DNA of 64,000 bases from Candidatus Nomurabacteria bacterium GW2011_GWE1_32_28 (lineage in GTDB: Bacteria; Patescibacteriota; Minisyncoccia; Phycocordibacterales; UBA9973), in the NCBI GenBank assembly GCA_000989515.1, contig LBOM01000001.1, forward strand, positions 61,260-125,259, in the 5' to 3' direction. The stretch's first letter is position 1. Every line of letters starts with the position of its first letter. Below, in pieces: positions 1,995 through 44,457 of the stretch. The notes under the pieces were generated by a model. That model saw only the letters and a program-made list of their open reading frames with translations, did not search any database and was not told the DNA's origin. The translations under genes were made by a program, and so were the position numbers.

Positions 1995-3544
1995 TATTTT
2001 TGTGTTACATTAAATGATTCTATAATATCTCCTTCTACAATTTCCATTTTTGATTCGATCATCATTCCGAATTCTGCACCTTCTTCAACTTCTTTTACTT
2101 TTACTTTACTTTTTTCTAGATTTACTATTTTACCACGTCCAATTTCAAATTCTCTTCGCATTATTTTTACTGTTTTGTTTAATACTATACGTCCTTCTAT
2201 TGTTTTTCCACCTAGTATTTGACGTTCCTTGCTTTTATTAAAAACTCTAAGAATCTTTGCTTTTCCAATTGTTTCAACTGTTTCTATTTTAGGTCTTCTT
2301 TCTTCCATTTCAGCTTCAAGCCATTCTGTCATTTTGTATATAATATCAAAAAAAGAAATAGTTATTCCTCTTTTTTCTGCTAATTCAATTGCACTTTTGT
2401 CTATCTTGACGTTAAATCCGATTACTAATATATTTTCAGATCCACTTATTGTTTTTATATCTGATTCTCCTATAGGTCCTACTCCTTTTTGTATAATCTT
2501 AAATTTAGCATTTTTACTTACAGTAGCGTTAAATTCGTAGTTTATTTTATTTATTTCTTTTTCTATCGCTTCTAGTGAACCTGAAATATCAGCTTTTAAT
2601 ATTATTGGAATTATTTTTGTATCTGTTTGTAAAAATGAATTATCTTGTTTTTGTTTATCTTGTTTGTTGTTAGAAATTTTATCTTTTTCCCAATCATTAA
2701 TATATTTTTCTACATCTTTTTTGTTTTTAAAAGATTTAAATTCTGCACCTATTTTGGGAATTTTCGAGAAGCCGATAAGACGCGCAGGAGAAGAGAAACT
2801 TGCTTCAGATATTTTTTCTCCTAAAAAGTTTTCCATAATATTTGTAGAGCAAGTACTATCTTCTACTACAATAGTCATTCCTTTGAGCAGGGTTCCATTT
2901 TTAATGATAATAGTTGCTACTATTCCACGCTTGGGATCAAGATTTGCTTCAAGTATAAAACCAGAAGCATTTTCTTCTCTATCTCCAACAAAATTTTCCA
3001 TTTCAGCAAGAATATTTATTAAAGATAATAGATCATCTATTCCTTTTCCTGTTTTAGCAGAGATTTCAACAAATGGTATTTTGCCACCATAATTTTCAAG
3101 ATATATTTCATTTTCTGCTAATTCTGTTTTTGTTTTTTCAATATTTGCATTTTCTTTATCTATTTTATTTATTGCAACTATACATGGTATTTTATTTTCA
3201 ACTATAGTTTTCCAAGCTTCAATTGTTTGTGTTTTTACACCATCTTCAGCAGAAACAATTAAAATAGCAATATCAGCAATCTGACACCCTCGTTCGCGCA
3301 TTTTTGAAAAAGATTCATGTCCTGGGGTGTCAATGAAAGTTATTTTCTTTTTTTGTTTTGTGTCTGTTTGTGTATGTATAACTTCATAAGCAGAGGTATT
3401 TTGAGTTATCCCACCTATTTCTTTCTCTACTATGTTTGTTTCTCTAATATAATCCAAAAGTGTAGATTTACCATGGTCAATATGCCCCATTATTACAACT
3501 ACTGGTGATCGTTCTATGTTTTTATTTTCATTTATTTTTTCCAT
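1994..3544 (-). CDS. infB: translation initiation factor IF-2 (short form lacking N-terminal domains)
   Basis: G-domain motifs VVVIMGHIDHGKSTLLD and DTPGHESF, then NKIDK, then the IF-2 C-terminal beta-barrel domains. The protein is 516 aa. Confidence 0.9.
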   Translation of the reverse strand: MEKINENKNIERSPVVVIMGHIDHGKSTLLDYIRETNIVEKEIGGITQNTSAYEVIHTQTDTKQKKKITFIDTPGHESFSKMRERGCQIADIAILIVSAEDGVKTQTIEAWKTIVENKIPCIVAINKIDKENANIEKTKTELAENEIYLENYGGKIPFVEISAKTGKGIDDLLSLINILAEMENFVGDREENASGFILEANLDPKRGIVATIIIKNGTLLKGMTIVVEDSTCSTNIMENFLGEKISEASFSSPARLIGFSKIPKIGAEFKSFKNKKDVEKYINDWEKDKISNNKQDKQKQDNSFLQTDTKIIPIILKADISGSLEAIEKEINKINYEFNATVSKNAKFKIIQKGVGPIGESDIKTISGSENILVIGFNVKIDKSAIELAEKRGITISFFDIIYKMTEWLEAEMEERRPKIETVETIGKAKILRVFNKSKERQILGGKTIEGRIVLNKTVKIMRREFEIGRGKIVNLEKSKVKVKEVEEGAEFGMMIESKMEIVEGDIIESFNVTQK

Positions 3545-6012: not shown

Positions 6013-6093
6013 AATAAGTAATTACGAATTAAAAATTACGAATTACGAATTAAAATTTGAAATTAATAATTTGAAATTGAGAATTAAATATAT

Positions 6094-8802
6094 ATGCCAC
6101 CACTTAATAAATTTACAACTAAATCAAAAGATGCAATCAAAAAAGCTCATGAACTAGCTATTGAGCGTGGACAAAACCATGTATCTTCTTTGCATTTACT
6201 TGCCGCGCTTTTATTACAAGAAGAAAGTATGGTAAATTCTATTTTAGATAGATTAGAAATAGATACTATGTTTTTAACTGATTCTATTTTAGAAGCCATT
6301 GAAACTCCAGAATCTCATAGTACTCTTTCTCCTGCATATCAGATTTATCTTAATCCTGATTTAGCACAAGTGATAGAACATTCAGTAAAATTATCAGAAT
6401 ATATGAAAGATGATTTTGTTTCAACTGAACATCTTTTTATTGCTATGCTAGAAATTACTGGAGAAGCACGAGAAGTTTTGGCACGTTTTAGAATTCTCAA
6501 AGAGCCTGTCATGAAAGTATTAGAAGAGCTTCGTAGTCAAAATATTACTGATGTATCAGAACCTAAAAAATTTAGATTACTTTTAAAATATACTCGCAAC
6601 TTAACAAAACTAGCAAAAGAAGATAAATTAGATCCGGTTATAGGCCGTGATAATGAAATAATGCGTATTATACAAATTCTTTCTCGTAGGACAAAGAATA
6701 ATCCTATTTTAATAGGAGAGGCTGGAACTGGAAAGACGGCAGTAGTAGAGGGCTTAGCTGAGCGTATTGCAAAAAATAATGTTCCGGAATCTTTAAAAGA
6801 CAAAGAACTTGTTTCTCTTGATCTAGGTTCTCTTATAGCAGGTACAAAATATCGAGGAGAGTTTGAAGAAAGATTAAAGGGTATAATGAAAGAGATAGAA
6901 AGAGCTGAAGGAAAAGTTATTCTTTTTATTGACGAGATTCATACTATTGTAGGTGCTGGAGGATCAGAAGGTACGATGGATGCTTCAAATATGTTGAAGC
7001 CTGCGCTTTCTCGTGGAGAGTTGAGAGCAATAGGTGCAACTACATTAAAAGAATATCAAAAATATATTGAAAAGGATCCGGCATTAGCTCGTCGTTTTCA
7101 GCCTGTCTATATTGATGAACCAAATGTTGAAGATGCTATTACTATTCTTCGTGGACTTAAAGAGAAATATGAACTTTTTCATGGAGTACGAATTACTGAT
7201 AATGCAATAATTTCGTCAGTAAATCTTTCTACTCGTTATGTCACAAATAGATTCTTACCAGATAAAGCAGTGGATTTAATTGATGAGGCTTCTTCTTCTT
7301 TAAAAATTGCACTTGAAAATAAGCCACCTATTTTAGAAGATACACATAGAAAAATAATGCGTTTAGAGATTGAAAAGGAGGCACTTAAAAAAGAGATTGA
7401 AAATAAATCAGAAGATAGTAAAAGTACAAAAAATAGAATAAAAGAAATAGATAAAGAAATTGCAAATTTTAGTGAAAAAACAAAAGAGCTTGAATTAAAA
7501 TGGCAGAATGAAAAAGATATTGTGATTGAAATTCGTTTGATTAAAAAAGAATTAGATACTTTACGTTTATCTGCTGAAGATGCAGAAATGAAGGCTGATT
7601 TGTCTCGTGCTGCAGAAATACGTTATGGAAAAGTTCCTACTCTTAAAAAAGAATTAGAAACAAAACTTTTGCGTTTGAAAAAACTTCAAAAATCACGAAG
7701 GATTTTAAAAGAAGAAGTTACTGAAGAAGATATTGCAGAAGTCGTCGCACGTTGGACTGGTATTCCTCTTACTAAAATGTTAGAAGAAGATCGTGAAAAA
7801 CTTCAGAGAATAGAAGAAGAATTAAAAAAGAGGGTAGTAGGTCAAGATGAAGCAATAAAACGTGTTAGTGACGTAATTCGTCGTTCTCGTGCAGGAATAG
7901 GAGATCCAGAGAGACCAAGTGGATCATTTATATTCTTGGGTCCTACTGGTGTTGGTAAAACAGAACTTACAAAAGCTCTTGCTCAATTTATGTTTAATGA
8001 TGATAGTGCTCTTATAAGAGTAGATATGTCTGAGTATATGGAGAAACATTCAATATCAAAATTGATTGGTTCACCTCCTGGGTATGTTGGCTATGATGAA
8101 TCAGGACAACTTACTGAATCTGTTAGACATCGTCCATATTCTGTGATTCTTTTTGATGAGATTGAAAAAGCTCATCCTGAAATTTTTAATATGTTGCTTC
8201 AAGTAATAGATGAAGGAAGATTAACAGATGGAAAAGGTAGAGTAGTTAATTTTAAGAATACTATTATTATTCTTACTTCAAATATTGGTTCCCAATTTGT
8301 TGAGAAAATGGAATCAATTGGATTTTCTAATAATTCTGATAAAGAGAATTATAGCAACATGAAAGAAAAAGTAATGGAAGCCATGAAGGATCATTTTCGA
8401 CCAGAATTTATAAATCGATTAGATGAAATAATTATATTTGATATTTTAACAGAAGAAGCCATCAAAGAGATAGTTAATTTAAGGATAAAGGTTGTAAAAG
8501 AAAGACTCCTTGCCAAGAATATAGATTTTAAAATTTCTGATGATGCTTTGTCTTACTTAGCAAAAGAAGGATATAACCCACATTATGGTGCAAGACCACT
8601 TAATCGTTTAGTTCAGAATAAGATTTTGAATCCTGTAGCAAATTATATTATTTCTAATAGTGCAAAAGGTGGAGATACAATTTTTGTTTCTTTAAAAAAT
8701 AATGAACTTATTATTGAAACAAAAAAAGGTCATACCAAAGGACAGATAAATAAAATAAAAAGCTCAATAAATATAGATTCTAAGCTTTCAAGTAAAATTT
8801 AG
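6094..8802 (+). CDS. clpB: ATP-dependent chaperone ClpB
   Basis: 902 aa with an N-domain, two AAA+ modules ([15 protein letters not shown] and [15 protein letters not shown]) and a long coiled-coil middle domain. Confidence 0.9.
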
Positions 8803-10584: not shown

Positions 10585-11421
10585 TTATTTATTGTTAAGA
10601 TATTGAACTTCTTCCTGTAACATTTTAATCAACTCTGGGTTTTCTAAATTAGAAATATCTATAAACCCATAAGCTTCGCCTTTTAATTCTATCCCAGTTT
10701 TTAAATATTCCTCCCAAATTTTGAAAGGTAATTCTCCTTTTTGGATAATATAATTTTTATTTAAAATATTATCTGCAACAATAGTTAGACCTTTAAGCAC
10801 ATGATAAGTTAAACCATGTGCGACAATTACTATTTCAGTATTTTTTTCAAACTTTTCTGTTTTGTTGCTCATATCCAAAACAGAATTAAACATTCTTAAT
10901 AATGGCTCTTTGTAGCTTTCTCCACTTTTATTAAAAAACGATACTAACTCTGGGTATTTATAGTCACCATTTTCTAATAAAAATGGGTCACCAAATCTAT
11001 AATCCAAATTTTTATTTATAGAAAATTCGCTCAAGTAAATTTTTCCAGCTAATTTTAATCCTTCAAATACTTGACCTACTACATACTCATCAGGAAGAAT
11101 AAACTCTCCTTGGTCATTTCCATCCAAGTTACCCTCTATGTTAAATATAATTTTTATGTCATTACCTAATTTATTTTTTAGTTCTTTTGCTATTAATTTT
11201 GATGTTTGTTTAGATCTTAATTTAGAGGAAGAGATAAACAAAACAGCCTTTTTACCATTTGTTTTTATTTTTTCAACAAGAGCATTCACAATCTTAATAA
11301 GAGCCTCCTGATTGTCGGGATTTTCAATATCTAAAGGAGCATCTCTTTTCCATTTTTCAAGATCATCATATTCTTCTAAATGACCAGCGAATATAATTTT
11401 TTTATCACTTCTACTTTCCAT
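10585..11421 (-). CDS. hypothetical protein (possible histidine-phosphatase superfamily)
   Basis: 278 aa with a VIVAHGLTYHVL stretch reminiscent of the histidine phosphatase C-terminal His motif. The N-terminal RHG motif is not canonical. Confidence 0.3.
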   Translation of the reverse strand: MESRSDKKIIFAGHLEEYDDLEKWKRDAPLDIENPDNQEALIKIVNALVEKIKTNGKKAVLFISSSKLRSKQTSKLIAKELKNKLGNDIKIIFNIEGNLDGNDQGEFILPDEYVVGQVFEGLKLAGKIYLSEFSINKNLDYRFGDPFLLENGDYKYPELVSFFNKSGESYKEPLLRMFNSVLDMSNKTEKFEKNTEIVIVAHGLTYHVLKGLTIVADNILNKNYIIQKGELPFKIWEEYLKTGIELKGEAYGFIDISNLENPELIKMLQEEVQYLNNK

Positions 11422-15993: not shown

Positions 15994-17022
15994 ATGTCAA
16001 CAATATCTTTTAAACCAAAACAAGTTACAAAAAGAATTACATCACATCTTCAGGATCGTACACGTGATGTGGTGATGAATCGTTTTGGATTGACACCTGA
16101 TTCAAAAAGTAAAACTCTTGAGGAGATTGGTAAAAAATATAACATTACAAGAGAACGTGTTCGTCAGATTGAAGACGTTGCTTTGAATTTAATAAAAAAG
16201 TCTTCTGCATACAAAGAAGAACAAGCAATATTTGAAGAACTTAAACAATTAATATATTCTTTAGGATCAATTGTTGCTGAGCATGATTTGTTGTCTCATA
16301 TTTCAAAAGATAAAAATACGCAAAATCATATTCATTTTTATTTAGAATTAGGAGATTTGTTTAAAAAACATAGAGAAGATAATCATTTTAAGACTCGATG
16401 GAGTGTTGATGATGAAATTGTTGACAAAGTACATGATTCTCTTAAAAAACTTTATTTAAGTTTAAATGATGAAGATCTTGTTTTAGAAACTGAAATGATA
16501 AAGAAGTTTTTTGATGAAATGAAAGATGTTACTGAACATTACAAAAACGAAGAGATTGCTCGAAGATGGCTTTCTATGTCTAAAACTATTTCAAAGAATC
16601 CATTAGGTGAATGGGGAAAAACAAGCTCACCAAATGTACGCACGCGTGGAGTTAAAGATTATGCTTTTCTTGTAATGAGAAAGCATGGTTCTCCTATGCA
16701 TTTTAAGGAAGTTGCAGACTCTATTTCTAAAACTTTTGGACGTAAGACTCATTATGCTACTTGTCACAATGAACTTATAAAAGATTCCAGATTTGTCTTA
16801 GTTGGGCGTGGTCTTTATGCATTATCTGAATGGGGATACAAGACAGGGATTGCTAGAGAGGTTATAAGAGATATTTTAAAAAGAGAGGGGCCACTTTCAA
16901 AGGAAGACATCGTTGAAAAAGTTATGAAAGAGAGGTATTTTAAAAAAAATACTATTTTAGTTAATCTTGTGAATCTTAAATTCTTTAAAAAGAATAAGAA
17001 TGGTCTTTATACTATAGTTTAA
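15994..17022 (+). CDS. DNA-binding protein with sigma-70 region-4-like HTH plus HARE-HTH domain
   Basis: The N-terminal LEEIGKKYNITRERVRQIEDVAL matches the sigma-70 region 4.2 pattern. The C-terminal GSPMHFKEVADSI...RFVLVGRGLYALSEWGY matches the HARE-HTH pattern. No sigma regions 2 or 3 are recognisable. Confidence 0.5.
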   Translation: MSTISFKPKQVTKRITSHLQDRTRDVVMNRFGLTPDSKSKTLEEIGKKYNITRERVRQIEDVALNLIKKSSAYKEEQAIFEELKQLIYSLGSIVAEHDLLSHISKDKNTQNHIHFYLELGDLFKKHREDNHFKTRWSVDDEIVDKVHDSLKKLYLSLNDEDLVLETEMIKKFFDEMKDVTEHYKNEEIARRWLSMSKTISKNPLGEWGKTSSPNVRTRGVKDYAFLVMRKHGSPMHFKEVADSISKTFGRKTHYATCHNELIKDSRFVLVGRGLYALSEWGYKTGIAREVIRDILKREGPLSKEDIVEKVMKERYFKKNTILVNLVNLKFFKKNKNGLYTIV

Positions 17023-27593: not shown

Positions 27594-27625
27594 GAATTAT
27601 CAATTATGAATTATAGATTTAAGAT

Positions 27626-29311: not shown

Positions 29312-29357
29312 TAAATCAATTACGAATTAGCAATTACGAATTACGAATTAAAAAAAT

Positions 29358-30532: not shown

Positions 30533-30590
30533 AATTTATCTTTCTAAAATACCCCTTGAAAATAGGGGTATTTTTTGTTAGTATGAATAT

Positions 30591-31214
30591 ATGAAAGATA
30601 AAGAAGAAAAAGAAGATAATTTAAATGAATCTGTTGAAAATATTGAAGAAAATTCTGTTTCGTCAGATGATTCTGAAGTTCTAGAATTTGAATGGAATGT
30701 TGATGGTGAAGAAGATTTAAAGAAAACTTTAAAGAAATTTAGGGCTGATTTGAAAGAATGTAAACTTCAGAAAGAAGAATATCTAAATGGCTGGCAGAAA
30801 GAGCGTGCTGATTTTGCTAATTATCGTAAACAAGAAGATGACAGGAAAAATAATTTTTCAGAGGCAGTACGTGAACGCATCCTTACACGTTTCTTGAGTG
30901 TGTTGGATAGTTTTAATATGGCTTTTGCAAACAAAGAGTCTTGGAATAAAGTTGATGAGAATTGGCGCAAGGGAGTAGAATATATATATGCTCAATTAAA
31001 TACTGTATTTGAAGAATACGATGTAAAAGAAATTGGCATGGTGGGAGAAAATTTTGATCCAAATATTCATCAGTCTATAGATATGACAAAAACAGAAAAA
31101 AAAGAAGATAATCATAAAGTATCAGAAGTTATTCAGAAAGGTTACAAATTGGGCGACAGAGTAATTCGAGCTGCCCGAGTTAATGTTTTTGAATATAATG
31201 AAAACACAGAGTAA
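30591..31214 (+). CDS. grpE: nucleotide exchange factor GrpE
   Basis: An acidic N-terminus, a coiled coil, and the GrpE C-terminal beta domain (GENFDPNIHQSIDM...VIQKGYKLGDRVIRAARVNV). Confidence 0.8.
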   Translation: MKDKEEKEDNLNESVENIEENSVSSDDSEVLEFEWNVDGEEDLKKTLKKFRADLKECKLQKEEYLNGWQKERADFANYRKQEDDRKNNFSEAVRERILTRFLSVLDSFNMAFANKESWNKVDENWRKGVEYIYAQLNTVFEEYDVKEIGMVGENFDPNIHQSIDMTKTEKKEDNHKVSEVIQKGYKLGDRVIRAARVNVFEYNENTE

Positions 31215-32853
31215 AACATGTGAACATTGTAAAAATGAATTTACCATTAATGATGGTGAGCTTTCTTTGTATGAAAAAGTTGGTATAGAATTGCCGACTA
31301 TTTGTAATTTTTGTCGCATTAAATTACACTTGTCTTTTTGGATGTTTGGAAAATTTCGTAAAGGTAAATCAGATCTTTCGAGAAATAGTTTAATTACAGT
31401 ATTACCAGAGAAGAATAGATATCCTATTTATACATCTTCCGAATGGTATAGTGATAAATGGGAGGCTATGGATTATGGTCAAGACTATGATGGAAATAGA
31501 TCTTTTTTTGAACAATTACAAGAACTTCAAGAAAAAGTTCCTCATCCTCACCAAACTGGAGTTAAAAACACTAATTGTGATTGGTGTGATGATGTTTGGA
31601 ACTCTAAGAATTGTTATTTAGCACGTTCGATGGTAGGTTGTGAGCAATTATTTTATTCCTATAGAAACTATTTTGTTAAAAATTCTATTGATGTAGATGT
31701 TTGTTTTAATAGTGAAAAGTGCTATGACGCTGGAGAATGTCATCATTCATATAAACTTTTTTATTCTAAACATTCTCGTGATTGTATAGATTCATTCTTT
31801 TTATATGATTGTAAAAATTGTCAGGATTGTTTTATCTGTTGGAATTTACGTGGTAAATCATATTGTATAGAAAATATTCAATATTCTAGAGAAGAATATT
31901 TAGAAAAATTAAAGTCATTTAATCTTGGTTCATATAAATCAATACAAAATTATAAAAAGTATTTTGAGGAAATAGTTCAAAAAGAAGTAGTTCATAGACC
32001 AAATTTTAATTTCAAAACATATAATTCTTATGGTGATTATTTATTAAATTGTAAGAACTGTCATAATTGTAATACAATCAGTGAATCCGAAGATAGTTAT
32101 AATTGTGTTAGGGGAATTAGTCATAAATCTAATATTGACGCAAATGGTTGTTGGAATTCTGAATTATTAGGCAATTGTGCTAGTTGCATAGATGCTTATG
32201 CAGAAAAATATTGTGCCTGGTCATCTTCTCGATATTCTGAATATTTAGATTTATGTATTGAATGTGAATATTGTTTTGGTTGTGTTGGTTTAAAAAAGAA
32301 AAAATATTGTATTTTAAATAAACAATATGAAAAAGAATCCTTCGAGAAACTCAAGGCAAAGATCGTTGAAGATATGAAAAATAATGGAGAATATGGTCAA
32401 TTTTTACCATATTCTATGAGTGCTGGGCCGTTTAATTTTTCTAATAGTTTTTTATATTTTCCTGAAACTAAAAAAGAAGATATTTTAAAACTTGGTGGCT
32501 ATTGGGAAGATGTTAATGAAAGTGATATAGAGGGAGTGCCTACTAGTGAATTGCCTGATGACATAAAAGATGTGAAAGATTCTATCATAACTCAAGCATT
32601 AATCTGTTCTCTGACTGGCTGGCGTTTTAATATAGCCCAAAATGAGCTTTCTTTTTATAAAGAGAATAATATTCCACTTCCGAGATATCATTTTGATGTA
32701 CGAACAAAAAATCGTTTAAAATATTTAACAGTTTTACAAGCATATTCATATAAGTGTTTTTATTGTGAGAAAGAGGTGGAAGCCTATTATTTACCAGAAT
32801 GGAATTATCAAAAAATTGCTTGTGAAGAGTGTTATAAACAAAATATAAATTAA
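31183..32853 (+). CDS. large cysteine-rich protein, paralog 1 (multiple CxxC zinc-ribbon-like modules)
   Basis: 556 aa with about 45 Cys. N-terminal ribbon CEHC-x22-CNFC, repeated modules such as C-x2-C-x2-C-x2-C...KYCILNKQYEKE, and a C-terminal ribbon CFYC...CEEC. The start (31183 or ATG 31198) overlaps the grpE stop at 31214. Confidence 0.7.
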   Translation: MFLNIMKTQSKTCEHCKNEFTINDGELSLYEKVGIELPTICNFCRIKLHLSFWMFGKFRKGKSDLSRNSLITVLPEKNRYPIYTSSEWYSDKWEAMDYGQDYDGNRSFFEQLQELQEKVPHPHQTGVKNTNCDWCDDVWNSKNCYLARSMVGCEQLFYSYRNYFVKNSIDVDVCFNSEKCYDAGECHHSYKLFYSKHSRDCIDSFFLYDCKNCQDCFICWNLRGKSYCIENIQYSREEYLEKLKSFNLGSYKSIQNYKKYFEEIVQKEVVHRPNFNFKTYNSYGDYLLNCKNCHNCNTISESEDSYNCVRGISHKSNIDANGCWNSELLGNCASCIDAYAEKYCAWSSSRYSEYLDLCIECEYCFGCVGLKKKKYCILNKQYEKESFEKLKAKIVEDMKNNGEYGQFLPYSMSAGPFNFSNSFLYFPETKKEDILKLGGYWEDVNESDIEGVPTSELPDDIKDVKDSIITQALICSLTGWRFNIAQNELSFYKENNIPLPRYHFDVRTKNRLKYLTVLQAYSYKCFYCEKEVEAYYLPEWNYQKIACEECYKQNIN

Positions 32854-33091: not shown

Positions 33092-34864
33092 ATGGAAACT
33101 AAAACATGTCAAAATTGTAAAAACGAGTTTATCCTAGAAAAGGAAGATTTTAATTTTTATGAAAAGATAAAAGTCCCTCCTCCTACTTGGTGTCCGGAAT
33201 GTAGACTTATTCGTCGTTTAGCTTACAGAGAAGATAGAAATTTATATAAACGTATTTGTGATAATTGTAATGAAAATATAATAAGTATCTTTAGACCAGA
33301 CAGTTCAATTAAAGCTTATTGTCCAACTTGTTGGTATGGTGATAGTTGGGATGGAATAGAATATGGTAGGGATTATGATTTTTCTCGTTCATTTTTTGAA
33401 CAGTTCCATGAATTGCAAAAAATTGTACCAAACCAAGCTACTGGTTCAAAAAACTCAACGGATTGTTCTTATTCTAATAATAATATTCGTTGTAAAAATT
33501 GCACCCTTACTTTTGATGGTTTTCAATCCATAAATTGTTATAACTGCCAGACACCTCTTTTTTCAAGAGATTCTTTTGATTCTGATATAGTTGTTAATGC
33601 AGATCATGTATATGAGACATTAAATTCAACTGGTGTTTATAATACTAAATTTGCTTATTTTTCAGATGAATGCCTTGATTGTTCTTTTATCTTTAATTGC
33701 ATTGGATGTATAGATTGTTTTGGGTGTGTTAATTTAAGGAATCAAAAATATTGTATCTTTAATAAGAAATACACAAAAGAAGAATATAAAAAAGAAATAG
33801 AAAAATGGGATTTAGGAGATTATAAAATTTTAAAGAAAGCAGAAGAAAAATTTTTAGAGCTTTATTATAAAATTCCAAGACGTTTTTCTTTGATAACAAA
33901 TTCTTCTAATGTAATAGGCGATGATATAAAAAATACAAAGAATTGTAAGACTTGTTTTGCTACAAGAAATGGTATAGAAAATTGTAAGTATATATTTTTG
34001 AGCGGCTTATTATTGAAAGATAGTTATGATGTTACTTTTGGTGGAGATAATTCAGAAATTTTTTATGAAAAATCTGGAGGTATGCAATCTCAAAAATGCA
34101 TGTTTAGTAGAGCTTGTCATCATTCTAATGATGTACAATATTCGGATAAAATATATAATTGTTCTTATATTTTTGGTTGTTCAAAATTAAGGAATAAAAA
34201 ATATTGTATTTTAAATAAACAATATACAAAAGAAGAGTATAAAGAATTATTACCGAAAATTATAAAACACATGAATGATATGCCATATGTAGATAAAAAA
34301 GAAAGAATTTATAAATATGGTGAATTTTTCCCTACAGAGTTATCTCTTTTTGCATATAATGAAACATGGGCACATAAATATTTTCCTTTAACCAAAGAAG
34401 AGGTTTTGTATGAAGGTTTTAATTGGTATGATGAAAAAGATAGAAATTATAAAATAACAATGAAAACAGAAAATATACCAATTCACATAAAAGATGTGTC
34501 TGATTCAATATTAAATCAAGTAATAGAATGTGAACATAATAATAAAAATTGCAATCAACAATGCACAGGTGCTTTTAGGATATTATCTAATGAATTACAG
34601 TTTTATAGGCAGATGAATATAACACTACCTCGCTTGTGTCCAAGCTGTCGTTATGGACAACGTATAAAAAAGAAAAATCCTTTGAGATTATGGCATAGAA
34701 AATGTATGTGTAATGGAGTACAATCAAGTAATAAGGAATATAAAAATACTATAAAACATACACACGGAGATAAACCTTGCCAGAATGAATTTGAGACAGC
34801 AATAGATCCAGAGAGAAAAGAAATAGTATATTGCGAAAAGTGTTATCAAGCTGAATTTGTATAA
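33092..34864 (+). CDS. large cysteine-rich protein, paralog 2
   Basis: 590 aa, collinear with paralog 1. It shares the N-terminal CQNC...CPECR ribbon, the internal repeat KYCI(F/L)NK(K/Q)YTKEEYK and a C-terminal CxxC ribbon. Confidence 0.7.
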   Translation: METKTCQNCKNEFILEKEDFNFYEKIKVPPPTWCPECRLIRRLAYREDRNLYKRICDNCNENIISIFRPDSSIKAYCPTCWYGDSWDGIEYGRDYDFSRSFFEQFHELQKIVPNQATGSKNSTDCSYSNNNIRCKNCTLTFDGFQSINCYNCQTPLFSRDSFDSDIVVNADHVYETLNSTGVYNTKFAYFSDECLDCSFIFNCIGCIDCFGCVNLRNQKYCIFNKKYTKEEYKKEIEKWDLGDYKILKKAEEKFLELYYKIPRRFSLITNSSNVIGDDIKNTKNCKTCFATRNGIENCKYIFLSGLLLKDSYDVTFGGDNSEIFYEKSGGMQSQKCMFSRACHHSNDVQYSDKIYNCSYIFGCSKLRNKKYCILNKQYTKEEYKELLPKIIKHMNDMPYVDKKERIYKYGEFFPTELSLFAYNETWAHKYFPLTKEEVLYEGFNWYDEKDRNYKITMKTENIPIHIKDVSDSILNQVIECEHNNKNCNQQCTGAFRILSNELQFYRQMNITLPRLCPSCRYGQRIKKKNPLRLWHRKCMCNGVQSSNKEYKNTIKHTHGDKPCQNEFETAIDPERKEIVYCEKCYQAEFV

Positions 34865-36920: not shown

Positions 36921-37019
36921 AAAATATTAAATTTAAAAGATTTTAAGAGTCGTGTTTGTTCCCTGTCTTCACGGACTCCGAGTGCGAAGGCTTAGAAATC
37001 TTTTAAATTTAATATTTTT
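36921..37019. repeat. 23-bp perfect inverted repeat enclosing 53-nt GC-rich core, between convergent genes
   Basis: AAAATATTAAATTTAAAAGATTT at 36921-36943 pairs with AAATCTTTTAAATTTAATATTTT at 36997-37019. The core GAGTCGTG...CACGGACTC forms an inner hairpin. Confidence 0.6.
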
Positions 37020-37530
37020 TTATACTTTCTAAAAAAGCTAGTTTTGTTTCCTCATCAATTTTGTCTGTGACGATTATTATTAGTTCTGTTCCCAATTTTA
37101 AATCCTTTTTAATATTAGTAAAAAGATGTTCATAGGGTAGGGGAGAAATCCATACTGTATTTTTTATACAAGTAAAATTTGCTTTCTTTAAAAGATAACG
37201 TAATGCTTCACGTTCATTTTTTCTTTCTTCTGGAATATCTATAATTATAATTCTCCATAATCCATCCCAATTTGTAGAGACAAGAGCACTACCTCCTTCT
37301 AGTCTAATCGAGTTTAATTTGTTTTTTCCTTTTTTTGTAAGTTTTAAATAATCTTTATTATCAGATTTAAGTATTTCTATACAACCAGATTCTATCAAGT
37401 TTTTTATTGAACGTGTTAAAGCATAAGTTATTTTAGGATCTTCAGTATCCTTTATAGATTCTAATGAAATAGCTGGTTTTTCAGCTAAAATTTTAAGTAT
37501 TTTATTAGAATATTCAATTTTTCTTGACAT
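37009..37530 (-). CDS. small wHTH-containing putative transcriptional regulator with C-terminal alpha/beta domain, divergent from dnaK
   Basis: 173 aa. The N-terminal about 90 aa is winged-helix-like. The C-terminal WDGLWRIIIIDIPEERKNEREALRYLLKK...TVWIS resembles the PaaX / Cas2-like fold; this is by eye only. Confidence 0.4.
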   Translation of the reverse strand: MSRKIEYSNKILKILAEKPAISLESIKDTEDPKITYALTRSIKNLIESGCIEILKSDNKDYLKLTKKGKNKLNSIRLEGGSALVSTNWDGLWRIIIIDIPEERKNEREALRYLLKKANFTCIKNTVWISPLPYEHLFTNIKKDLKLGTELIIIVTDKIDEETKLAFLESIKKY

Positions 37531-37558
37531 ACTTATATATTATAATATATACTGTCGT

Positions 37559-37590
37559 TTGACAAGTATTTTGCGGTCACGAAATACTTG
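37559..37590. promoter_or_regulatory. dnaK promoter -35 (TTGACA) overlapped by 9-bp inverted repeat CAAGTATTT-N10-AAATACTTG (candidate operator)
   Basis: Perfect -35 hexamer at 37559-37564, with IR arms at 37563-37571 and 37582-37590. Not CIRCE. Confidence 0.5.
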
Positions 37591-37659
37591 CAAAATATTT
37601 AATTAAGGTATATTATATTAATATAATTAATAATTATTATAAATTTAACTAAGAAATAT

Positions 37660-39567
37660 ATGTCAAAAATAATAGGAATAGATTTAGGTACTACGAATTC
37701 TGCAGTCGCTTTTATTGAAGGTGGTGTGCCAAAAATAATAGAAAATGTCGAAGGTAATCGTACAACGCCTTCTGTTGTTGCAACAGCAAAAAATGGTGAT
37801 CGTATTGTTGGTCTTCTTGGAAAAAGACAAGCTGTTACAAATCCTGAAAATACAATTTCTGAAATAAAACGTTACATGGGTCATAGATTTGATGATCCAG
37901 AAGTACAAAAAGATAAACCAACAGCTCCTTTTAAAATTGAAGCTGGAGAAGATGGAGGAGTAAAAGTAAAAATGTCAGATAAATTTTTTCGTCCAGAAGA
38001 AATTTCTGCAATGCTTCTACAAAAAATAAAAGCTGATGTTGAAGCTAAATTAGGAGAAAAAATAACAGAAGCAGTTATTACTGTTCCAGCATATTTTAAT
38101 GATGCACAAAGAAAAGCAACAAAAGATGCAGGACAGATAGCAGGTCTTGATGTAAAACGTATTATAAATGAACCGACTGCTGCTGCTCTTGCTTATGGAT
38201 TTAATAAAAAGAAAAATGAAAAAATAGTTGTGTACGATTTTGGTGGAGGAACTTTTGATGTTTCTGTTCTTGAAATTGGTGATGATGTTATTGAAGTTAA
38301 ATCCACTGATGGTGATAGTCATATGGGTGGAGGTGACATTGATCGAAAAGTTATTGCTTGGATTGCGGAAGAATATAAAAAAGAATCAGGCGTTGATGTA
38401 AGAAAAGATCCACTTGCTCATCAAAGATTAAAAGAAGCAGCTGAAAAAGCAAAACATGAGCTTTCTACAACGATTGAAACAGAAATAAATATTCCATTTA
38501 TTACTTCTGATGCAAGTGGTCCAAAACATTTACTTTTAAAAATGTCTCGCGCAACTCTTGAATCTTTAGCGAAAGAATATATAGATCGTTCTATCGAAAT
38601 AACGAAAAGAGCTCTTGAAGCATCTCCATTTAAAATGAATGAGATAAATGAAATTATAATGGTTGGTGGACAAACTAGAATGCCAGCAATAGTGGAAGCA
38701 GTTAAGAATCTTTTTGGGAAAACTCCAAATATGTCCATTAATCCTGATGAAGTTGTGGCTTTAGGTGCTGCTGTGCAAGCAGGAGTGCTTGCTGGAGATG
38801 TTCGTGATGTATTATTATTGGATGTTATACCTCTTTCTCTTGGTATTGAGACACTAGGAGGAGTTGGTACAAAATTAATTGAAAGAAATACAACTATTCC
38901 GGCTTCTAAATCTCAAGTATTTTCGACTGCTGCTGATAATCAAACTTCTGTTGAGATTCACATAGTACAAGGAGAACGTCCTATGGCAACTGATAATAAA
39001 TCTCTCGGACGTTTTATTTTGGACGGAATTCCACCAGCACCTCGAGGTATGCCACAAGTGGAAGTGACCTTTGATATTGATGTAAATGGAATATTAAATG
39101 TTACAGCTAAAGATAAAGCTTCTGGTAAAGCTCAATCAATAAAAATAGAAGCAAGTTCAGGATTAAAAGAAGAAGAAATTAAAAAAATGCAAGAAGATGC
39201 TGAACTTCATGCAGATGAAGATAAAAAGAAAAGAGAAATCGTTGATATAAAAAATACAGCTGAGATAGTTATTTATACTGCAGAAAAATCATTGAAGGAT
39301 AATGAAGCAAAAATTCCATCTGATATTAAAGATAATGTGAATGCAAAGATTACTGCATTGCGTGGAGTAAAAGATGGTGCAGATGCAGATGCTATTAAAA
39401 AAGCTACAGAAGAATTATCTGCTGAAATGTCTAAAATTGGTGAAGCTATGAGTAAAGCTGGAGCTGAGACTCCTCAGGGAGGTGCACCAGAAGAACAAAA
39501 CCAAGAAGTTCGTGATGCTGAATTTAAAGAAGGAGAGAAAACTGAAGAAGAAGATCCAAAAGTATAA
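37660..39567 (+). CDS. dnaK: molecular chaperone DnaK (Hsp70)
   Basis: [23 protein letters not shown] and a C-terminal lid; 635 aa. Confidence 0.95.
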
Positions 39568-39593
39568 TTTTTTAGCGAACTTGATTTCAAGAC

Positions 39594-39632
39594 AAAACTA
39601 AAAAGCCTCTATCGAGGGGCTTTTTAGTTTTG
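39594..39632 (+). terminator. long hairpin downstream of dnaK
   Basis: CAAAACTAAAAAGCC-TCTATCGAGG-GGCTTTTTAGTTTTG. Confidence 0.55.
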
Positions 39633-39657
39633 TCAATTTCTGGTATAATTTACCTGT

Positions 39658-41799
39658 ATGGATTTGCACGAAATACCAAAAAATAAAGAAATTACATATA
39701 TTGGTAATACTTCTTATAGGGATAAAAATGTTCTTTTTGGAATAAAACGCAAAGATAGGCGTCAACATGTTTATATTCTTGGAAAGTCAGGTACAGGTAA
39801 ATCTGCATTGATGTTTAATATGATTATTCAGAATATAGAAAATGGAGATGGTGTCTGTATGGTTGATCCACATGGGGAAAATGTTGAAGATATTCTTTCT
39901 GCTATTCCTCCTCATCGCATGAAAGATGTTGTTTACTTTAATCCTGCTGATGCTGATTTTCATATTGGATTTAATGTTTTAGAACTCATTGATCCAAAAT
40001 ATAAACATCTAGTGGCTTCTGGATTGATGGGGATTTTTACTAAAATTTGGGCAAATGCATGGAGTGCTCGTATGGAATACATTTTAAATAATGCAATCTT
40101 AGCATTACTTGACACTCCTGGTTCTACGCTTTTAGGTATACCAAGAATGCTTGTAGATAAAGATTATCGTCAGAAAATAATTACCAATTTAAAAGATCCA
40201 GTTATTAAAGCTTTTTGGGTACATGAATACGAGGCTTGGCAAGATAAATTTAGAAATGAAGCCATAGCACCTATTCAAAATAAAGTCGGACAATTCCTCT
40301 CTACTTCTATTATTCGAAATATTGTAGGTCAATCTGTGAGCACTATAAATATTTTTGACATAATGAATGAAGGAAAAATTTTTCTTGTGAATGTTTCTAA
40401 AGGACGTATTGGTGAAGACAACTCGTCACTTTTGGGAGGTATGATCATTACCAAAATTCAACTTGCTGCAATGGAACGTGTACGTATTCCTGAAGATGAA
40501 AGAAAAGATTTTTATCTTTACGTAGACGAATTTCAGAATTTCGTTACTGAAGCTTTTGCTGGTATTCTATCTGAGGCTAGAAAGTATAGATTAAATCTTA
40601 CTGTTGCTCATCAATATACTGCTCAGCTTATTTCAGACAAAAATTCAAGCGTAAGAGATGCTATCTTTGGTAACGTTGGTACTATGATGGTTTTTAGAGT
40701 AGGAGCAGATGATGCAGAATTTTTAGAAAAAGAATTTGAACCAGAGTTTACCCCTCAAGATATTGTAAGTCTGCCAAATTTTAAAATATATTTGAAATTA
40801 ATGATAGATGGTGTATCTTCTCGTCCATTTTCAGCAAAAACTCTTTCACCAATGGTAAAATCTGGCAATAAAGAAATTGAAGAAGAAGTCATTAAGTCTT
40901 CTCGTGATCTTTATTGTAAATCAAAAGAAGAAGTAGAAAGAGAAATAAACGATTGGAGTGGTATGTCTATCGGTGATGATAATAACAATGGTGTTGAGAA
41001 ATTTCCTGCAAGATGTTCTCTTTGTAAAAAAGAGACAACTGTGCCATTTAAACCAGAAGCTGGTAGACCTGTGTATTGTAAAGATTGTATAGCAAAGATA
41101 AAATCAGGTGAAGTTAAGCCCATAAAAGGATCTATGCATCAGATCAAGGAAGATGAATCTAAGTTTTTTCAACCTCTAGCTGATTTAGGTATAGAATTTA
41201 AACAAAAAAATGGAAATGGAAATGTGAACATTGAAAGGTATCCAGAAAGAATTGATAAACCAATAGAAGATCACTTAGTCAAAAAAGTTTTTTCTAAAAA
41301 TACTCCAATTTTAAAACCAAAGATATTTTCTTCAATTAAAAAAGTTTTTACTAAAGCTAAGCCTATTCAAAAAGAGAATTTAGCTCTTAAAGAAATTCTT
41401 AATAAAACTCTTTCAGAAAATAAAATTTTAGATGAAAAAGAGAAAGAAGTAAAAGAAAAAAAAGTAGAACCCACTATTTCTCTTAATGAGTTAAAAAATC
41501 AAAAACCTGAATTAAAAATTAAATTGAATGATAGATCAGCTAGTTCAGAAGAAATGAATAAATTGAAAGATTTTATCTCAGATAAAATAGTACCTATAGA
41601 AGTTGAAACTTCAACTCCTCAGACAAAGGCTGATCAGCCTTTGACTGAAACCCTAACACCAATTCAAGCTCCAATACTAGAACCAGTACAAATAACAGCA
41701 ACTGAACCAGAAAAAAAAGAAGAATCAATTAAGAAGATAGATTCAATAAATAAAGTTAAAGAAGTCCCAGAAGATGTTTTGAGAAAAATCTTGGAATAA
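39658..41799 (+). CDS. soluble FtsK/HerA-superfamily ATPase resembling T4SS coupling proteins (TrwB/TraD/VirD4-like), with C-terminal CxxC-x17-CxxC zinc ribbon and Lys/Glu-rich tail
   Basis: Walker A RRQHVYILGKSGTGKS followed by MVDPHGE, as in the TrwB pattern. Walker [12 protein letters not shown], then ARKYRLNLTVAHQY. No N-terminal TM helices. Zinc ribbon CSLCKKETTVPFKPEAGRPVYCKDC. 713 aa. Confidence 0.55.
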   Translation: MDLHEIPKNKEITYIGNTSYRDKNVLFGIKRKDRRQHVYILGKSGTGKSALMFNMIIQNIENGDGVCMVDPHGENVEDILSAIPPHRMKDVVYFNPADADFHIGFNVLELIDPKYKHLVASGLMGIFTKIWANAWSARMEYILNNAILALLDTPGSTLLGIPRMLVDKDYRQKIITNLKDPVIKAFWVHEYEAWQDKFRNEAIAPIQNKVGQFLSTSIIRNIVGQSVSTINIFDIMNEGKIFLVNVSKGRIGEDNSSLLGGMIITKIQLAAMERVRIPEDERKDFYLYVDEFQNFVTEAFAGILSEARKYRLNLTVAHQYTAQLISDKNSSVRDAIFGNVGTMMVFRVGADDAEFLEKEFEPEFTPQDIVSLPNFKIYLKLMIDGVSSRPFSAKTLSPMVKSGNKEIEEEVIKSSRDLYCKSKEEVEREINDWSGMSIGDDNNNGVEKFPARCSLCKKETTVPFKPEAGRPVYCKDCIAKIKSGEVKPIKGSMHQIKEDESKFFQPLADLGIEFKQKNGNGNVNIERYPERIDKPIEDHLVKKVFSKNTPILKPKIFSSIKKVFTKAKPIQKENLALKEILNKTLSENKILDEKEKEVKEKKVEPTISLNELKNQKPELKIKLNDRSASSEEMNKLKDFISDKIVPIEVETSTPQTKADQPLTETLTPIQAPILEPVQITATEPEKKEESIKKIDSINKVKEVPEDVLRKILE

Positions 41800-41855: not shown

Positions 41856-43343
41856 ATGTCAAAGCCAAATAGGGTTCAAATAATAAAATATGGTCCACCC
41901 CCACCTGAATTACCTGTATTCGGAAAAGTCAGACCTGAAGAGGTTTCTTTTATTGGACGTACAAATTATGTGGCCTCTCTTGAAGAGAAGAAATTTATTT
42001 TTGGTATTAAACGTATAGATCGCAGGCGACATCTTTATATAATTGGTAAATCTGGTGTAGGAAAAACAAAATTAATAGAACTTTTTTTAAGACAAGATAT
42101 TACTTATAATCATGGTTTGTGCCTTATTGACCCGCATGGAGATGTTGTTGATTCGATACTTGATTATATTCCAAAAGAACGTATTGAAGATGTTTGTATA
42201 ATTGATCCTTCTGATGTTGACTTTCCTGTTTCTTTTAATCCTTTAGCTAATGTTGATCCAATGTTTAAATTTCAGTTAACCCAGGGTCTCATAGAGGTAT
42301 TTCAAAAACAATTCGGAGCAAATTGGACACCACGTCTAGAGCACGTTTTTCGTTTTACTTGTCTTGCATTACTTGATTATCCTCATGCCACAATGAGAGG
42401 GATGATTTCTATGTTGACTGATAGAAATTATAGACAGAAAGTAATCGAGTATATTACTGATGATATGGTGAAAAGATTCTTCGCTATTGAATTCGCAGAT
42501 TGGTCTGAGAAATTTGATACAGATGCTATTATTCCACTTGTAAACAAATTAGGACAATTCTTGTCTGATCCATTACTACGAAATATTTTTGGACAGAAGC
42601 AAAATAAAATAGATATGGGTAAGCTTATGAATGAAGGTAAAATAATTCTTATTAATCTTTCAAAGGGGCGTCTTGGAGAGGAGAATTCTTCTTTTCTTGG
42701 TTCTATGTTTTTGACTAAAATAAAACAAGCTGGAATGGAAAGAGCAAGTATCCCTGAAAAAGATCGTACAGATTTTTATCTTTATGTTGATGAGTTTCAA
42801 AACGTAGTTACACAAACATTTGAGAATATTTTATCAGAAGCTAGAAAATATGGATTAAATTTAACCATCGCCCATCAATATGTAGGACAAATTTTACCGA
42901 AAGTTCACCAAGCTGTACTTGGTAATTGCGGTAGTATTATTACTTTTCGTGTTGGAGGAGAAGATGCAGTAAAAATGAAGCCAGAATTTGCTCCAATATT
43001 CGAAGTGAAAGATATGATTAACTTAGCTGTAGGAGAAATATTTGTTAAAATGACTATTGACGGTGAATCCTATGATCCATTTTCAGCTGAGACTTTGAGG
43101 GTTTTGCCACCTACCCATAGATCATATAGAAGTGAAATAATTGAAGCATCTCGTAGAAAGTTCTCAATATCTAAAGATGATGCACAAAAACTTATTATGG
43201 AAGAAGAAGCAACTATTATAAGAAGTACAGAAGAAAAAGCTATAATTGAAGGAAAAGGAAAGAAAAAACCAGATGAAGAAGGCGAAGAGGAAGAAAAAGA
43301 AGAAAAAATTAGTAGTTCTCAAGAAGCTGAACCTATGATATAA
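41856..43343 (+). CDS. second soluble TrwB/VirD4-like FtsK/HerA-superfamily ATPase (paralog), acidic C-terminal tail
   Basis: [19 protein letters not shown]...[32 protein letters not shown]. 495 aa. The stop is 8 nt before the dnaJ start. Confidence 0.55.
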
Positions 43344-43350
43344 TACCCTT

Positions 43351-44457
43351 ATGAGTAAAGATTATTATGAAATTTTGGGGGTAAATAAAGGGGCTTCAAA
43401 AGATGAAATCAAAAAGGCTTTTTATAAATTAGCCCATAAATATCACCCTGATAAAAAAGAGGGAGATGAAAAAAAATTCAAACAAGTGAATGAGGCTTAT
43501 CAGATTCTTTCTGATGATTCGAAACGTTCAAAATATGATCAATTTGGGTCTGGTTTTGAAAATATGGGACAAGGAGGATATAGTGGAGCATCACAAGGTG
43601 GTTTCGAAGGATTTGATTTTAGTAATTTTTCTGGGGGATTCCAGAATGGAGCTTCAGATTTTGATTTTGGGAATTTGAATGATATCTTTAGTGATTTTTT
43701 TACAGGTGGAGGAAGAGGAGGAAGAACACAAGCTAGACGTGGGCGAGATATTTCTACCGAAATACAGATTTCTTTTTCTGAGTCAATTTTTGGGACTAAT
43801 AGAAAAATTTTAATTACTAAGACTTCAAACTGTGCTACTTGTAGTGGTTCTGGTGCAAAATCTGGAACTAAGATGGAAACTTGTAAATATTGTAATGGAC
43901 AAGGAAAAGTTCGAGAAGACAAAAGAACTATTTTAGGTACTATTTCAAGTACAAAAATTTGTGAAGAATGTCTAGGCTCTGGCGAAGTACCAAAAGAAAA
44001 ATGTGAAAATTGTAAGGGAAAAGGAGTGTTGCGTCGCGAAGAAGAAATTTCTATAAATATACCAGAAGGGATAAGAGATGGAGAGATGATTAGGATGACA
44101 GGTGGTGGTGAAGCTATTTCAAAAGGAACAGCAGGTGATTTATATATTAAAATAAATGTTGCTTCACATGCAGTGTTTAAAAGAGAAGGTAATGATCTAG
44201 CAATGGATTTAGATTTGAAACTTTCCGATGCATTATTAAGTACGGAATATCCTATAGAAACTCTAGATGGACAAATAAGTGTAAAGATTCCAGAAGGTGT
44301 GTCTATAAATGAAATTCTTCGTGTTAAAGGTAAGGGTGTGCCTTCCTCAAAAAGTAGACGTGGGGATTTGTTGATTAAATTAAAAATTAAACTCCCATCA
44401 AAAATTTCCAAAAAATCTAGAGAAATTATCGAACAACTGAGAAAAGAGGGAATATAA
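43351..44457 (+). CDS. dnaJ: molecular chaperone DnaJ
   Basis: J-domain with HPD (YHPDK), a G/F-rich region, four CxxCxGxG zinc-finger repeats and C-terminal domains. Confidence 0.9.

Follow-up and report, generated by a model that had tools for sequence, protein, structure and literature searches.

A PaaX-like winged-helix protein and a 30-bp palindrome as a conserved, predicted control module of dnaK in Paceibacteria

The 64,000-nucleotide stretch of contig LBOM01000001.1 analysed here (hereafter the window) comes from Candidatus Nomurabacteria bacterium GW2011_GWE1_32_28, whose lineage we take to be the Paceibacteria (Minisyncoccia) within the candidate phyla radiation (CPR). It carries dnaK, which encodes Hsp70, and, divergent from it, a gene for a PaaX-like protein of 173 residues, referred to below as the regulator. 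Very probably, this protein has the DnaK chaperone system as its dedicated target of regulation, a function so far undescribed. We further consider it probable that it acts as a dimer and represses the DnaK genes, to which it is dedicated, as well as its own gene, by way of a 30-bp operator located between the two divergent promoters. The palindrome that would constitute this operator accompanies the regulator–dnaK pair in well over 100 related, ultra-small CPR/Paceibacteria.

The initial annotation of the window had placed the regulator gene about 130 bp from dnaK, which we measure as 129 bp, and had noted in this gap a 9-bp inverted repeat with a 10-nt spacer and a TTGACA hexamer. Both elements are present as described; the repeat, CAAGTATTT-N10-AAATACTTG, spans positions 37563-37590 with zero mismatches (arms at 37563-71 and 37582-90), and the hexamer lies at 37559-37564. 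The repeat stretches to imperfect 14-nt arms with 86% complementarity, and the centre of the operator is CGGTCACG. Within the window the site is unique. A search for this repeat with up to three mismatches returned one further match, at 11046, which is at chance level (shuffle mean 0.25), and the arm motif AAWACTTGYNAA is confined to the two arms. A position weight matrix (PWM) built from the sites of relatives scored the window site at 53.9 bits, and no other position of the 64 kb exceeded -6.4 bits.

Relatives were taken as one genome per species (GTDB representatives); at least 136 were found, and the counts that follow are from the best 80. The gene upstream of the regulator, on the opposite strand, is dnaK in 75 of these 80 species loci, with 74-94% identity between the dnaK of the window and that of related loci. 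Of the five loci without a dnaK match, four offer under 900 nt of contig on the relevant flank, and in L068 and L080 the contig breaks off within the regulator gene itself. When only loci with full flanks are scored, dnaK lies on the other side of the site in 75 of 77. The two start codons are within 350 nt of each other in 65 loci and within 600 nt in 69. The wider gene order is also stable, running from rpsI through grpE and a variable set of inserted genes to the regulator, on the other strand, and dnaK. Lack of conservation of the inverted repeat in relatives had been named beforehand as refuting; the palindrome was seen in 78 of the 80 loci, the two exceptions being cut at the 5' end of the regulator gene. 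Each of these loci holds a single copy, apart from L047. The alignment of 79 sites has seven invariant columns and a further ten with conservation of 90% or above, and the G+C-rich centre, CGYG-GT/AC-CRCG, stands out in the A+T-rich spacers. In L014 an additional, weaker palindrome (TCAAGTATAA-N9-AAAAACTTGC, 1260-1310) lies directly 5' of the regulator start, 120 nt from the main operator.

The same association was found in metagenomes. A scan with ACAARTWWTTNGYGRYCRCNAAA yielded at least 120 stretches, and the figures given here are among the matches listed. Full sites scoring at least 26 bits numbered 93, all with the regulator and/or dnaK within 1.5 kb; 78 lie beside both genes and 15 beside one, the latter because the contig ends. 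A further 25 stretches lacked any site of 15 bits or more and are chance matches, mostly to coding sequence of higher-G+C organisms. Three stretches fell between 15 and 26 bits, of which L142 and L190 are chance matches in coding sequence; the third, L179, is described below. A search of 216 loci with the half-site AAWACTTG[TC]NA returned coding-sequence coincidences and already known sites only.

The link to chaperone genes extends to distant homologues. Six proteins that are 31-43% identical to the regulator (P0127, P0128, P0135, P0136, P0304 and P0289) are all encoded divergently from grpE-(x)-dnaK(-dnaJ), dnaJ usually following grpE-dnaK. Their loci keep the arms of the palindrome, as in L216 (GACAAGTTTTTC-N8-GAAAAACTTGTC) and L082 (ACAAGTTTTT-N10-AAATACTTGT), while the operator centre differs and the residues of the recognition helix differ too. 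Within the close clade, recognition helix and operator centre are both nearly invariant, so that coevolution of the two is uninformative there, and a joint change is seen only in comparison with the distant clades. By contrast, paralogues with 30% identity or less are not beside chaperone genes (P0165 follows dnaX, and P0149 adjoins genes for an HTH_3 protein and a sigma factor; the contigs of P0147 and P0150 are too short for gene context), which indicates that the dnaK-linked proteins are one branch of a short PaaX_M family. Taken with the 75 of 77 scorable loci and the 93 metagenomic sites, the distant grpE-dnaK-dnaJ homologues suggest that the tie first proposed, of a winged-helix regulator to dnaK via the palindrome, holds well beyond this genome.

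Weaker copies of the operator were found at two other chaperone genes in other genomes. In L047, where dnaJ is separated from dnaK, a second copy of 23.6 bits (2349-2386) lies just 5' of dnaJ and overlaps a TTGAAA-N17-TAAAAT promoter. In L179, a low-G+C contig, a 19.8-bit copy consisting of the centre and right arm (3396-3433) overlaps TTGTCA-N16-TATAAT 80 nt 5' of clpB, whose product is 64% identical to that of the clpB gene in the window. These copies point to the same functional class, chaperone genes. The initial annotation had suggested further sites upstream of clpB and grpE; in the window there are none, and these two copies in other genomes are what the search produced. In L085 (3560-3800), repeated units of the CATTCAGAATGAC type, which look like a small inserted repeat element, expand the spacer between regulator and grpE to 584 bp, with one operator arm retained at each promoter.

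Known operators of chaperone genes were also sought. The controlling inverted repeat of chaperone expression (CIRCE, TTAGCACTC-N9-GAGTGCTAA) does not occur with three or fewer mismatches in the window or in 1.74 Mb of dnaK-centred related loci, in line with its absence as initially noted. The HspR-associated inverted repeat (HAIR, CTTGAGT-N7-ACTCAAG) at up to three mismatches and the CtsR box (tandem heptad RGTCAAA-N4-RGTCAAA) at up to two are likewise absent from the window. A motif scan of the 1.74 Mb of fetched loci detected no hrcA or groEL, which says little as these loci are dnaK-centred, and no hrcA was seen at its usual position ahead of grpE in any locus examined. These results bear on whether some other factor from elsewhere in the genome, such as an HrcA-like repressor that escaped recognition, might bind the palindrome, with the PaaX-like gene as no more than a conserved neighbour. 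Binding of the regulator to the site is a prediction, which leaves room for such a factor. We nevertheless regard it as very unlikely: the site sequence is unrelated to CIRCE, HAIR and CtsR boxes, every one of the 93 metagenomic sites is beside the regulator and/or dnaK, the spacing from the site to the regulator start codon is fixed, and the operator centre changes in step with the divergence of the regulator winged helix.

The palindrome could in principle function through hairpin formation in RNA or DNA, serving between the two genes as a thermometer, an attenuator or a terminator, rather than as a protein-binding site. A hairpin of 11-15 bp is possible, and the RNA fold has a predicted energy of -16.9 kcal/mol, an unremarkable value (z = -1.9). 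However, across 14 symmetric pairs in the 79 sites, standard pairing occupies 81.7% of cells compared to 81.5% after shuffling, and double (compensatory) changes number 14 where 28.6 are expected. Each half of the palindrome drifts around its consensus independently, and many sites have one degenerate arm, so that many natural variants break the pairing on one side. This lack of compensatory covariation indicates a protein-binding palindrome and not a selected stem. Rfam has no match for the palindrome, and on either side the best promoter is located downstream of the element, which is also far from the dnaK ribosome-binding region. A hairpin function was rejected as extremely unlikely.

The initial annotation had recognised by eye a winged helix followed by a PaaX/Cas2-like fold, and this view is upheld by profile and structure comparisons. 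The Pfam model PaaX_M (PF20803), which describes the central Cas2-like domain of PaaX, matches residues 86-161 with an E value of 2.2e-18 (66.6 bits against a cut-off of 24) and is matched by 36 of 36 diverse family members. An AlphaFold2 model based on a 36-sequence alignment has a mean predicted local distance difference test score of 83.8 and consists of a winged helix (residues 2-78) and a ferredoxin-like β-α-β-β-α-β-α domain (residues 92-171). When this model was compared with the PDB using Foldseek, the top matches were, in order, Escherichia coli W PaaX (8a39), Rv0674 of Mycobacterium tuberculosis (3kfw), which has the same two-domain layout, and a PaaX-like protein of Jannaschia (3l09); MarR proteins and one Cas2 followed at lower ranks. 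The alignment to 8a39 spans ~180 columns, and the winged helix is thus shared with PaaX at the fold level. In sequence, the N-terminal half gives weak winged-helix matches only (DUF4364, MarR and HxlR). A family profile searched against PDB sequences gave weak HxlR/MarR matches and detected no PaaX chain at E ≤ 1, so that the relationship to PaaX is visible via Pfam and fold comparison only. The regulator matches PaaX_M and not HrcA in Pfam, and no MerR-family match was obtained in Pfam and profile searches.

Despite this relationship, the regulator was rejected as a PaaX orthologue, its TIGR02277 score being 29.6 bits where the cut-off is 264.55. PaaX (8a39, 3l09; TIGR02277, COG3327) likewise has an N-terminal winged helix followed by PF20803, but is ~300-316 residues long and continues into a C-terminal helical domain that binds phenylacetyl-coenzyme A (CoA). 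The regulator ends at residue 173, directly after the Cas2-like domain and just where this effector domain would start. Neither the N-terminal nor the C-terminal Pfam model of PaaX matched any of the 36 diverse members at E ≤ 0.01. PaaX also differs in controlling paa genes, none of which are near the regulator. PaaX is a dimeric, autoregulated repressor that binds inverted repeats at divergent promoters, competes with RNA polymerase, is released by phenylacetyl-CoA and uses its Cas2-like domain for dimerisation (PMC9493321). Its site, TGATTC-N27-GAATCA (PMC9493321), is unlike the regulator operator, ACAAGTATTT-N10-AAATACTTGT.

Short proteins of this kind are numerous. A search of 1.84 billion cluster representatives returned 3044 clusters (representatives at 50% identity) at E ≤ 1e-3, of which 848 reach E ≤ 1e-10 and 18 reach E ≤ 1e-30; most are 180-200 residues long. 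The homologous clusters at 90% identity number 1423, and the dnaK-linked clade is one branch among these short PaaX_M proteins. In the close family, Y36, R40, S41 and K43 are invariant, as is the wing tip S56-D57-N58. Mean pairwise identity is higher in the Cas2-like domain than in the winged helix, both in the close family (0.87 versus 0.67) and in a wide set (0.50 versus 0.34). This stronger conservation of the Cas2-like domain hints at a role beyond holding the dimer together.

A different reading of this domain is that of an active nuclease or toxin of the Cas2/VapD type, which would make the gene a defence or addiction module rather than a regulator. Weak CRISPR_Cas2 matches occur in 5 of the 36 family members, and the Asp that closes strand 1, D98, is a conserved residue of the close family. 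This residue is, however, Asn in several homologues; the window genes near the regulator include neither cas genes or a CRISPR array nor an antitoxin-like partner, and PaaX uses the same domain for dimerisation. The strict chaperone-gene synteny would also be hard to explain, and we give a nuclease function almost no weight.

The palindrome is flanked and partly overlapped by predicted promoters on both strands (Table 1). The -35 box of the regulator promoter, TTGTCA, overlaps the left end of the palindrome. Across relatives, the palindrome centre lies exactly 46 nt from the regulator ATG in 38 of 78 loci, with the consensus TTGT.a-N17-TAatAT-N6-ATG. On the dnaK side, 44 of 78 loci have T[TA]GNN[AT] at the palindrome end followed 16-18 nt on by TAnnnT, and in many loci the -10 box is a perfect TATAAT. 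The initial annotation had read the plus-strand TTGACA as the dnaK -35 box, which now appears mistaken: in this analysis it is probably the complement of the regulator -35, TTGTCA, and a better dnaK promoter, TTGCAA-N17-TATTAT, lies at the other end of the palindrome. Thus, the proposed overlap of operator and -35 region stands, but in place of 9+9 bp over a single -35 box there is a 30-bp operator overlapping two predicted -35 boxes. A protein bound at the site would be expected to cover core promoter elements of both genes under either dnaK promoter.

From these elements a mechanism may be outlined. The regulator would dimerise, presumably through the Cas2-like domain by analogy to PaaX, and its two winged helices would read the arms ACAAGTWTTT and AAAWACTTGT and, in this lineage, also the G+C-rich centre CGYG-GT-CRCG. 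Once bound, it would keep RNA polymerase off both promoters, resulting in negative autoregulation and in repression of dnaK, and both genes would be induced when proteotoxic or heat stress sets it free. As to the signal, our guess is intrinsic thermolability or a titration by DnaK and unfolded proteins, as with HspR; a CoA thioester seems less likely because the regulator is without the PaaX effector domain. Fold, site, uniqueness of the site, its joint conservation with the gene pair and the missing RNA-type covariation are results of this analysis; DNA binding by the regulator, repression rather than activation, and the inducing signal are what we infer, and several lines of argument favour a repressor. 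The known dedicated dnaK-operon regulators of this type, HrcA, HspR and CtsR, are all repressors. Near-consensus dnaK promoters in many relatives (TTGTCA/TTGCTA-N17-TATAAT) need no activator. Lastly, PaaX, the characterised relative, is itself a repressor that competes with RNA polymerase (PMC9493321).

These arguments bear equally on the converse possibility, that the same protein and site activate dnaK and the regulator's own gene, the protein being placed beside and partly over the -35 boxes, through RNA polymerase recruitment or a MerR-like reshaping of an 18-bp spacer. The geometry would allow it, as the palindrome centre is ~46 bp upstream of both predicted starts, between class I and class II activator positions, and the TTGACA-N18-AATACT promoter has an over-long spacer, which holds the site, and a weak -10. 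Weighed against the near-consensus -35/-10 pairs on the dnaK side in many relatives and the repressor function of PaaX and of the known dnaK-operon regulators, activation seems unlikely.

A related question is whether the palindrome mainly reflects two divergent promoters that overlap, the -35 and -10 of each strand being symmetrically placed, with the neighbouring protein having another target or role. Each arm carries TTGNCA and, on the opposite strand, AATACT, spaced by 18 nt, and it is the arms that distant relatives retain. This explanation leaves the invariant G+C-rich centre, CGYGGTCRCG, unaccounted for in an A+T-rich genome. Moreover, the arm motif occurs nowhere else in the 64 kb, half-site-plus-centre copies recur 5' of dnaJ and clpB, and a winged-helix gene is always attached. 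We therefore judge a promoter footprint to be quite improbable.

Returning to the autoregulated repressor, several points weigh against it in addition to the activator-compatible position of the palindrome centre. The promoters and transcription starts are consensus predictions, and in a 32% G+C genome such matches are common (13 promoter-like sites versus 5.8 expected). In compact loci (group b) the dnaK ATG is just 41 nt from the palindrome centre, which makes an outward dnaK promoter impossible there. Conservation of the arms could be due in part to promoter function, TTGNCA being a -35 and AATACT resembling a -10. Finally, the PWM scan found no copy of the site at clpB (6094-8802, Pfam-confirmed) or grpE (start at 30591) of the window; what is present here is a local regulator, not a demonstrated heat-shock regulon.

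Comparison with known heat-shock repressors places these observations in context. HrcA heads grpE-dnaK in Firmicutes. It is ~340 residues long, has C-terminal domains of its own, needs GroEL and usually controls groESL too. Like the regulator, HrcA is a winged-helix repressor heading grpE-dnaK-dnaJ with a palindromic operator (9-N9-9), and distant relatives of the regulator hold that same position divergently; yet the two proteins have no sequence or fold relationship. HspR (Actinobacteria, Helicobacter, Deinococcus) is similar in that it is autoregulated, represses the dnaK operon (in some cases clpB as well) as a dedicated protein acting at an inverted repeat in the promoter, and has a small regulon, but it is of the MerR type and encoded downstream in the dnaK operon. 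HspR uses DnaK as co-repressor, and by analogy this is a possible model for sensing in the regulator family. A broader proposal, which we advance tentatively, is that the family is the heat-shock repressor of Paceibacteria (Minisyncoccia), which make up a large part of the CPR, and forms a further class structurally unrelated to HrcA, HspR, CtsR and RheA. Under this proposal it would have arisen from a PaaX-type protein by loss of the ligand domain, its unusually conserved Cas2-like domain would sense stress, whether by forming a thermolabile dimer or by being a client or partner of DnaK in a chaperone-titration loop, and it would stand in the place of HrcA/CIRCE at grpE-dnaK-dnaJ.

The initial annotation had called the regulator novel. 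Its link to dnaK is new, but the protein was not unannotated: NCBI and JGI already assign it to the PaaX family, and the NCBI label of the identical protein in many assemblies is 'PaaX family transcriptional regulator' of Candidatus Nomurabacteria bacterium. In the literature searched, PaaX-type proteins are nowhere linked to dnaK, the regulation of chaperone genes in Paceibacteria is not described, the operator and promoter layout do not appear, and no transcription factor of this group is presented together with its operator and targets. A local repressor at a divergent promoter is ordinary logic; what is new is the family, its PaaX origin and the dnaK target. If the repressor reading is true, the PaaX fold works as a minimal two-domain regulator without a CoA-binding domain, and the control of dnaK, among the most conserved of bacterial circuits, has been rebuilt from another protein family in a lineage with reduced genomes. 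With protein, 30-bp site, two promoters and target set all predicted in a CPR lineage, the system is testable without growing the organism.

Table 1 Predicted features of the regulator–dnaK region (window positions)
Feature	Position	Strand	Details	Basis
Regulator gene	37009..37530	-	173 residues, ATG start; short PaaX-superfamily protein without the PaaX C-terminal domain	Open reading frame (ORF)
Cas2-like (PaaX_M) domain region	37018..37275	-	Residues 86-171; presumed dimerisation module	Pfam
Winged-helix region	37297..37530	-	Recognition helix ~residues 32-48, wing 51-64	AlphaFold2 secondary structure, weak helix-turn-helix matches
Predicted regulator promoter	37537..37565	-	-35 TTGTCA 37565-37560, 17 nt, -10 TAATAT 37542-37537, 6 nt, ATG 37530	
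Alternative or additional predicted dnaK promoter	37559..37588	+	TTGACA-N18-AATACT, 10/12 consensus matches; operator core in spacer	
30-bp palindrome, predicted operator	37562..37591	.	ACAAGTATTT-TGCGGTCACG-AAATACTTGC	Repeat search, PWM
Predicted main dnaK promoter	37588..37616	+	-35 TTGCAA (37588), N17, -10 TATTAT; overlaps right end of palindrome	
dnaK (Hsp70), putative target gene	37660..39567	+		ORF, Pfam HSP70
Hairpin directly 3' of dnaK	39591..39634	+	20-bp stem, GACAAAACTAAAAAGCCTCT-ATCG-AGGGGCTTTTTAGTTTTGTC; likely two-way terminator	

The promoter layout of the regulator recurs in sigma-70-like promoters at other chaperone genes of the window. For grpE, TTGAAA (30556) is followed after 17 nt by TAGTAT (30579), which ends 6 nt before the ATG at 30591 (region 30556-30593). 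For dnaJ (43316-43353), TTCTCA-N17-TATAAT with a TG before the -10 is again 6 nt from the ATG. This conserved arrangement of -10, 6 nt and ATG at regulator, grpE and dnaJ suggests frequent leaderless mRNAs, the regulator mRNA being predicted to start at the A of its ATG, and it bears on translation start in these organisms.

In the 64-kb window, the regulator is surrounded by dnaK, an ABC transporter, grpE and ribosomal genes. Because of the hairpin that directly follows it, dnaK looks monocistronic here. Between dnaK and dnaJ lie two genes (39658-41799 and 41856-43343) for paralogous ATPases resembling type IV coupling proteins, with matches to TrwB_AAD_bind, DUF87 and TraG-D_C and, in the first, also to a treble-clef zinc finger; no other conjugation genes are near. 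Such genes are also present 3' of dnaK in many related genomes. Two further paralogues (31183-32853 and 33092-34864) encode Cys-rich proteins of 556 and 590 residues that have many CxxC pairs and no Pfam match; they recur in variable copy number around the grpE/dnaK cluster of relatives. Elsewhere in the window, a 342-residue protein (15994-17022) combines an N-terminal sigma-70 region 4 with HARE-HTH, an unusual architecture for a sigma-like factor. Finally, the intergenic repeat AATTACGAATTA is found in the same triple arrangement at 6020-6052, 5' of clpB, and at 29318-29350, in the rpoA/rplQ gap, with a copy carrying one mismatch between rpsK and rpsD (27602-27613). It has 7 matches against 1.4 expected, a number reached in no shuffle, and could be a further operator or a small intergenic repeat element.

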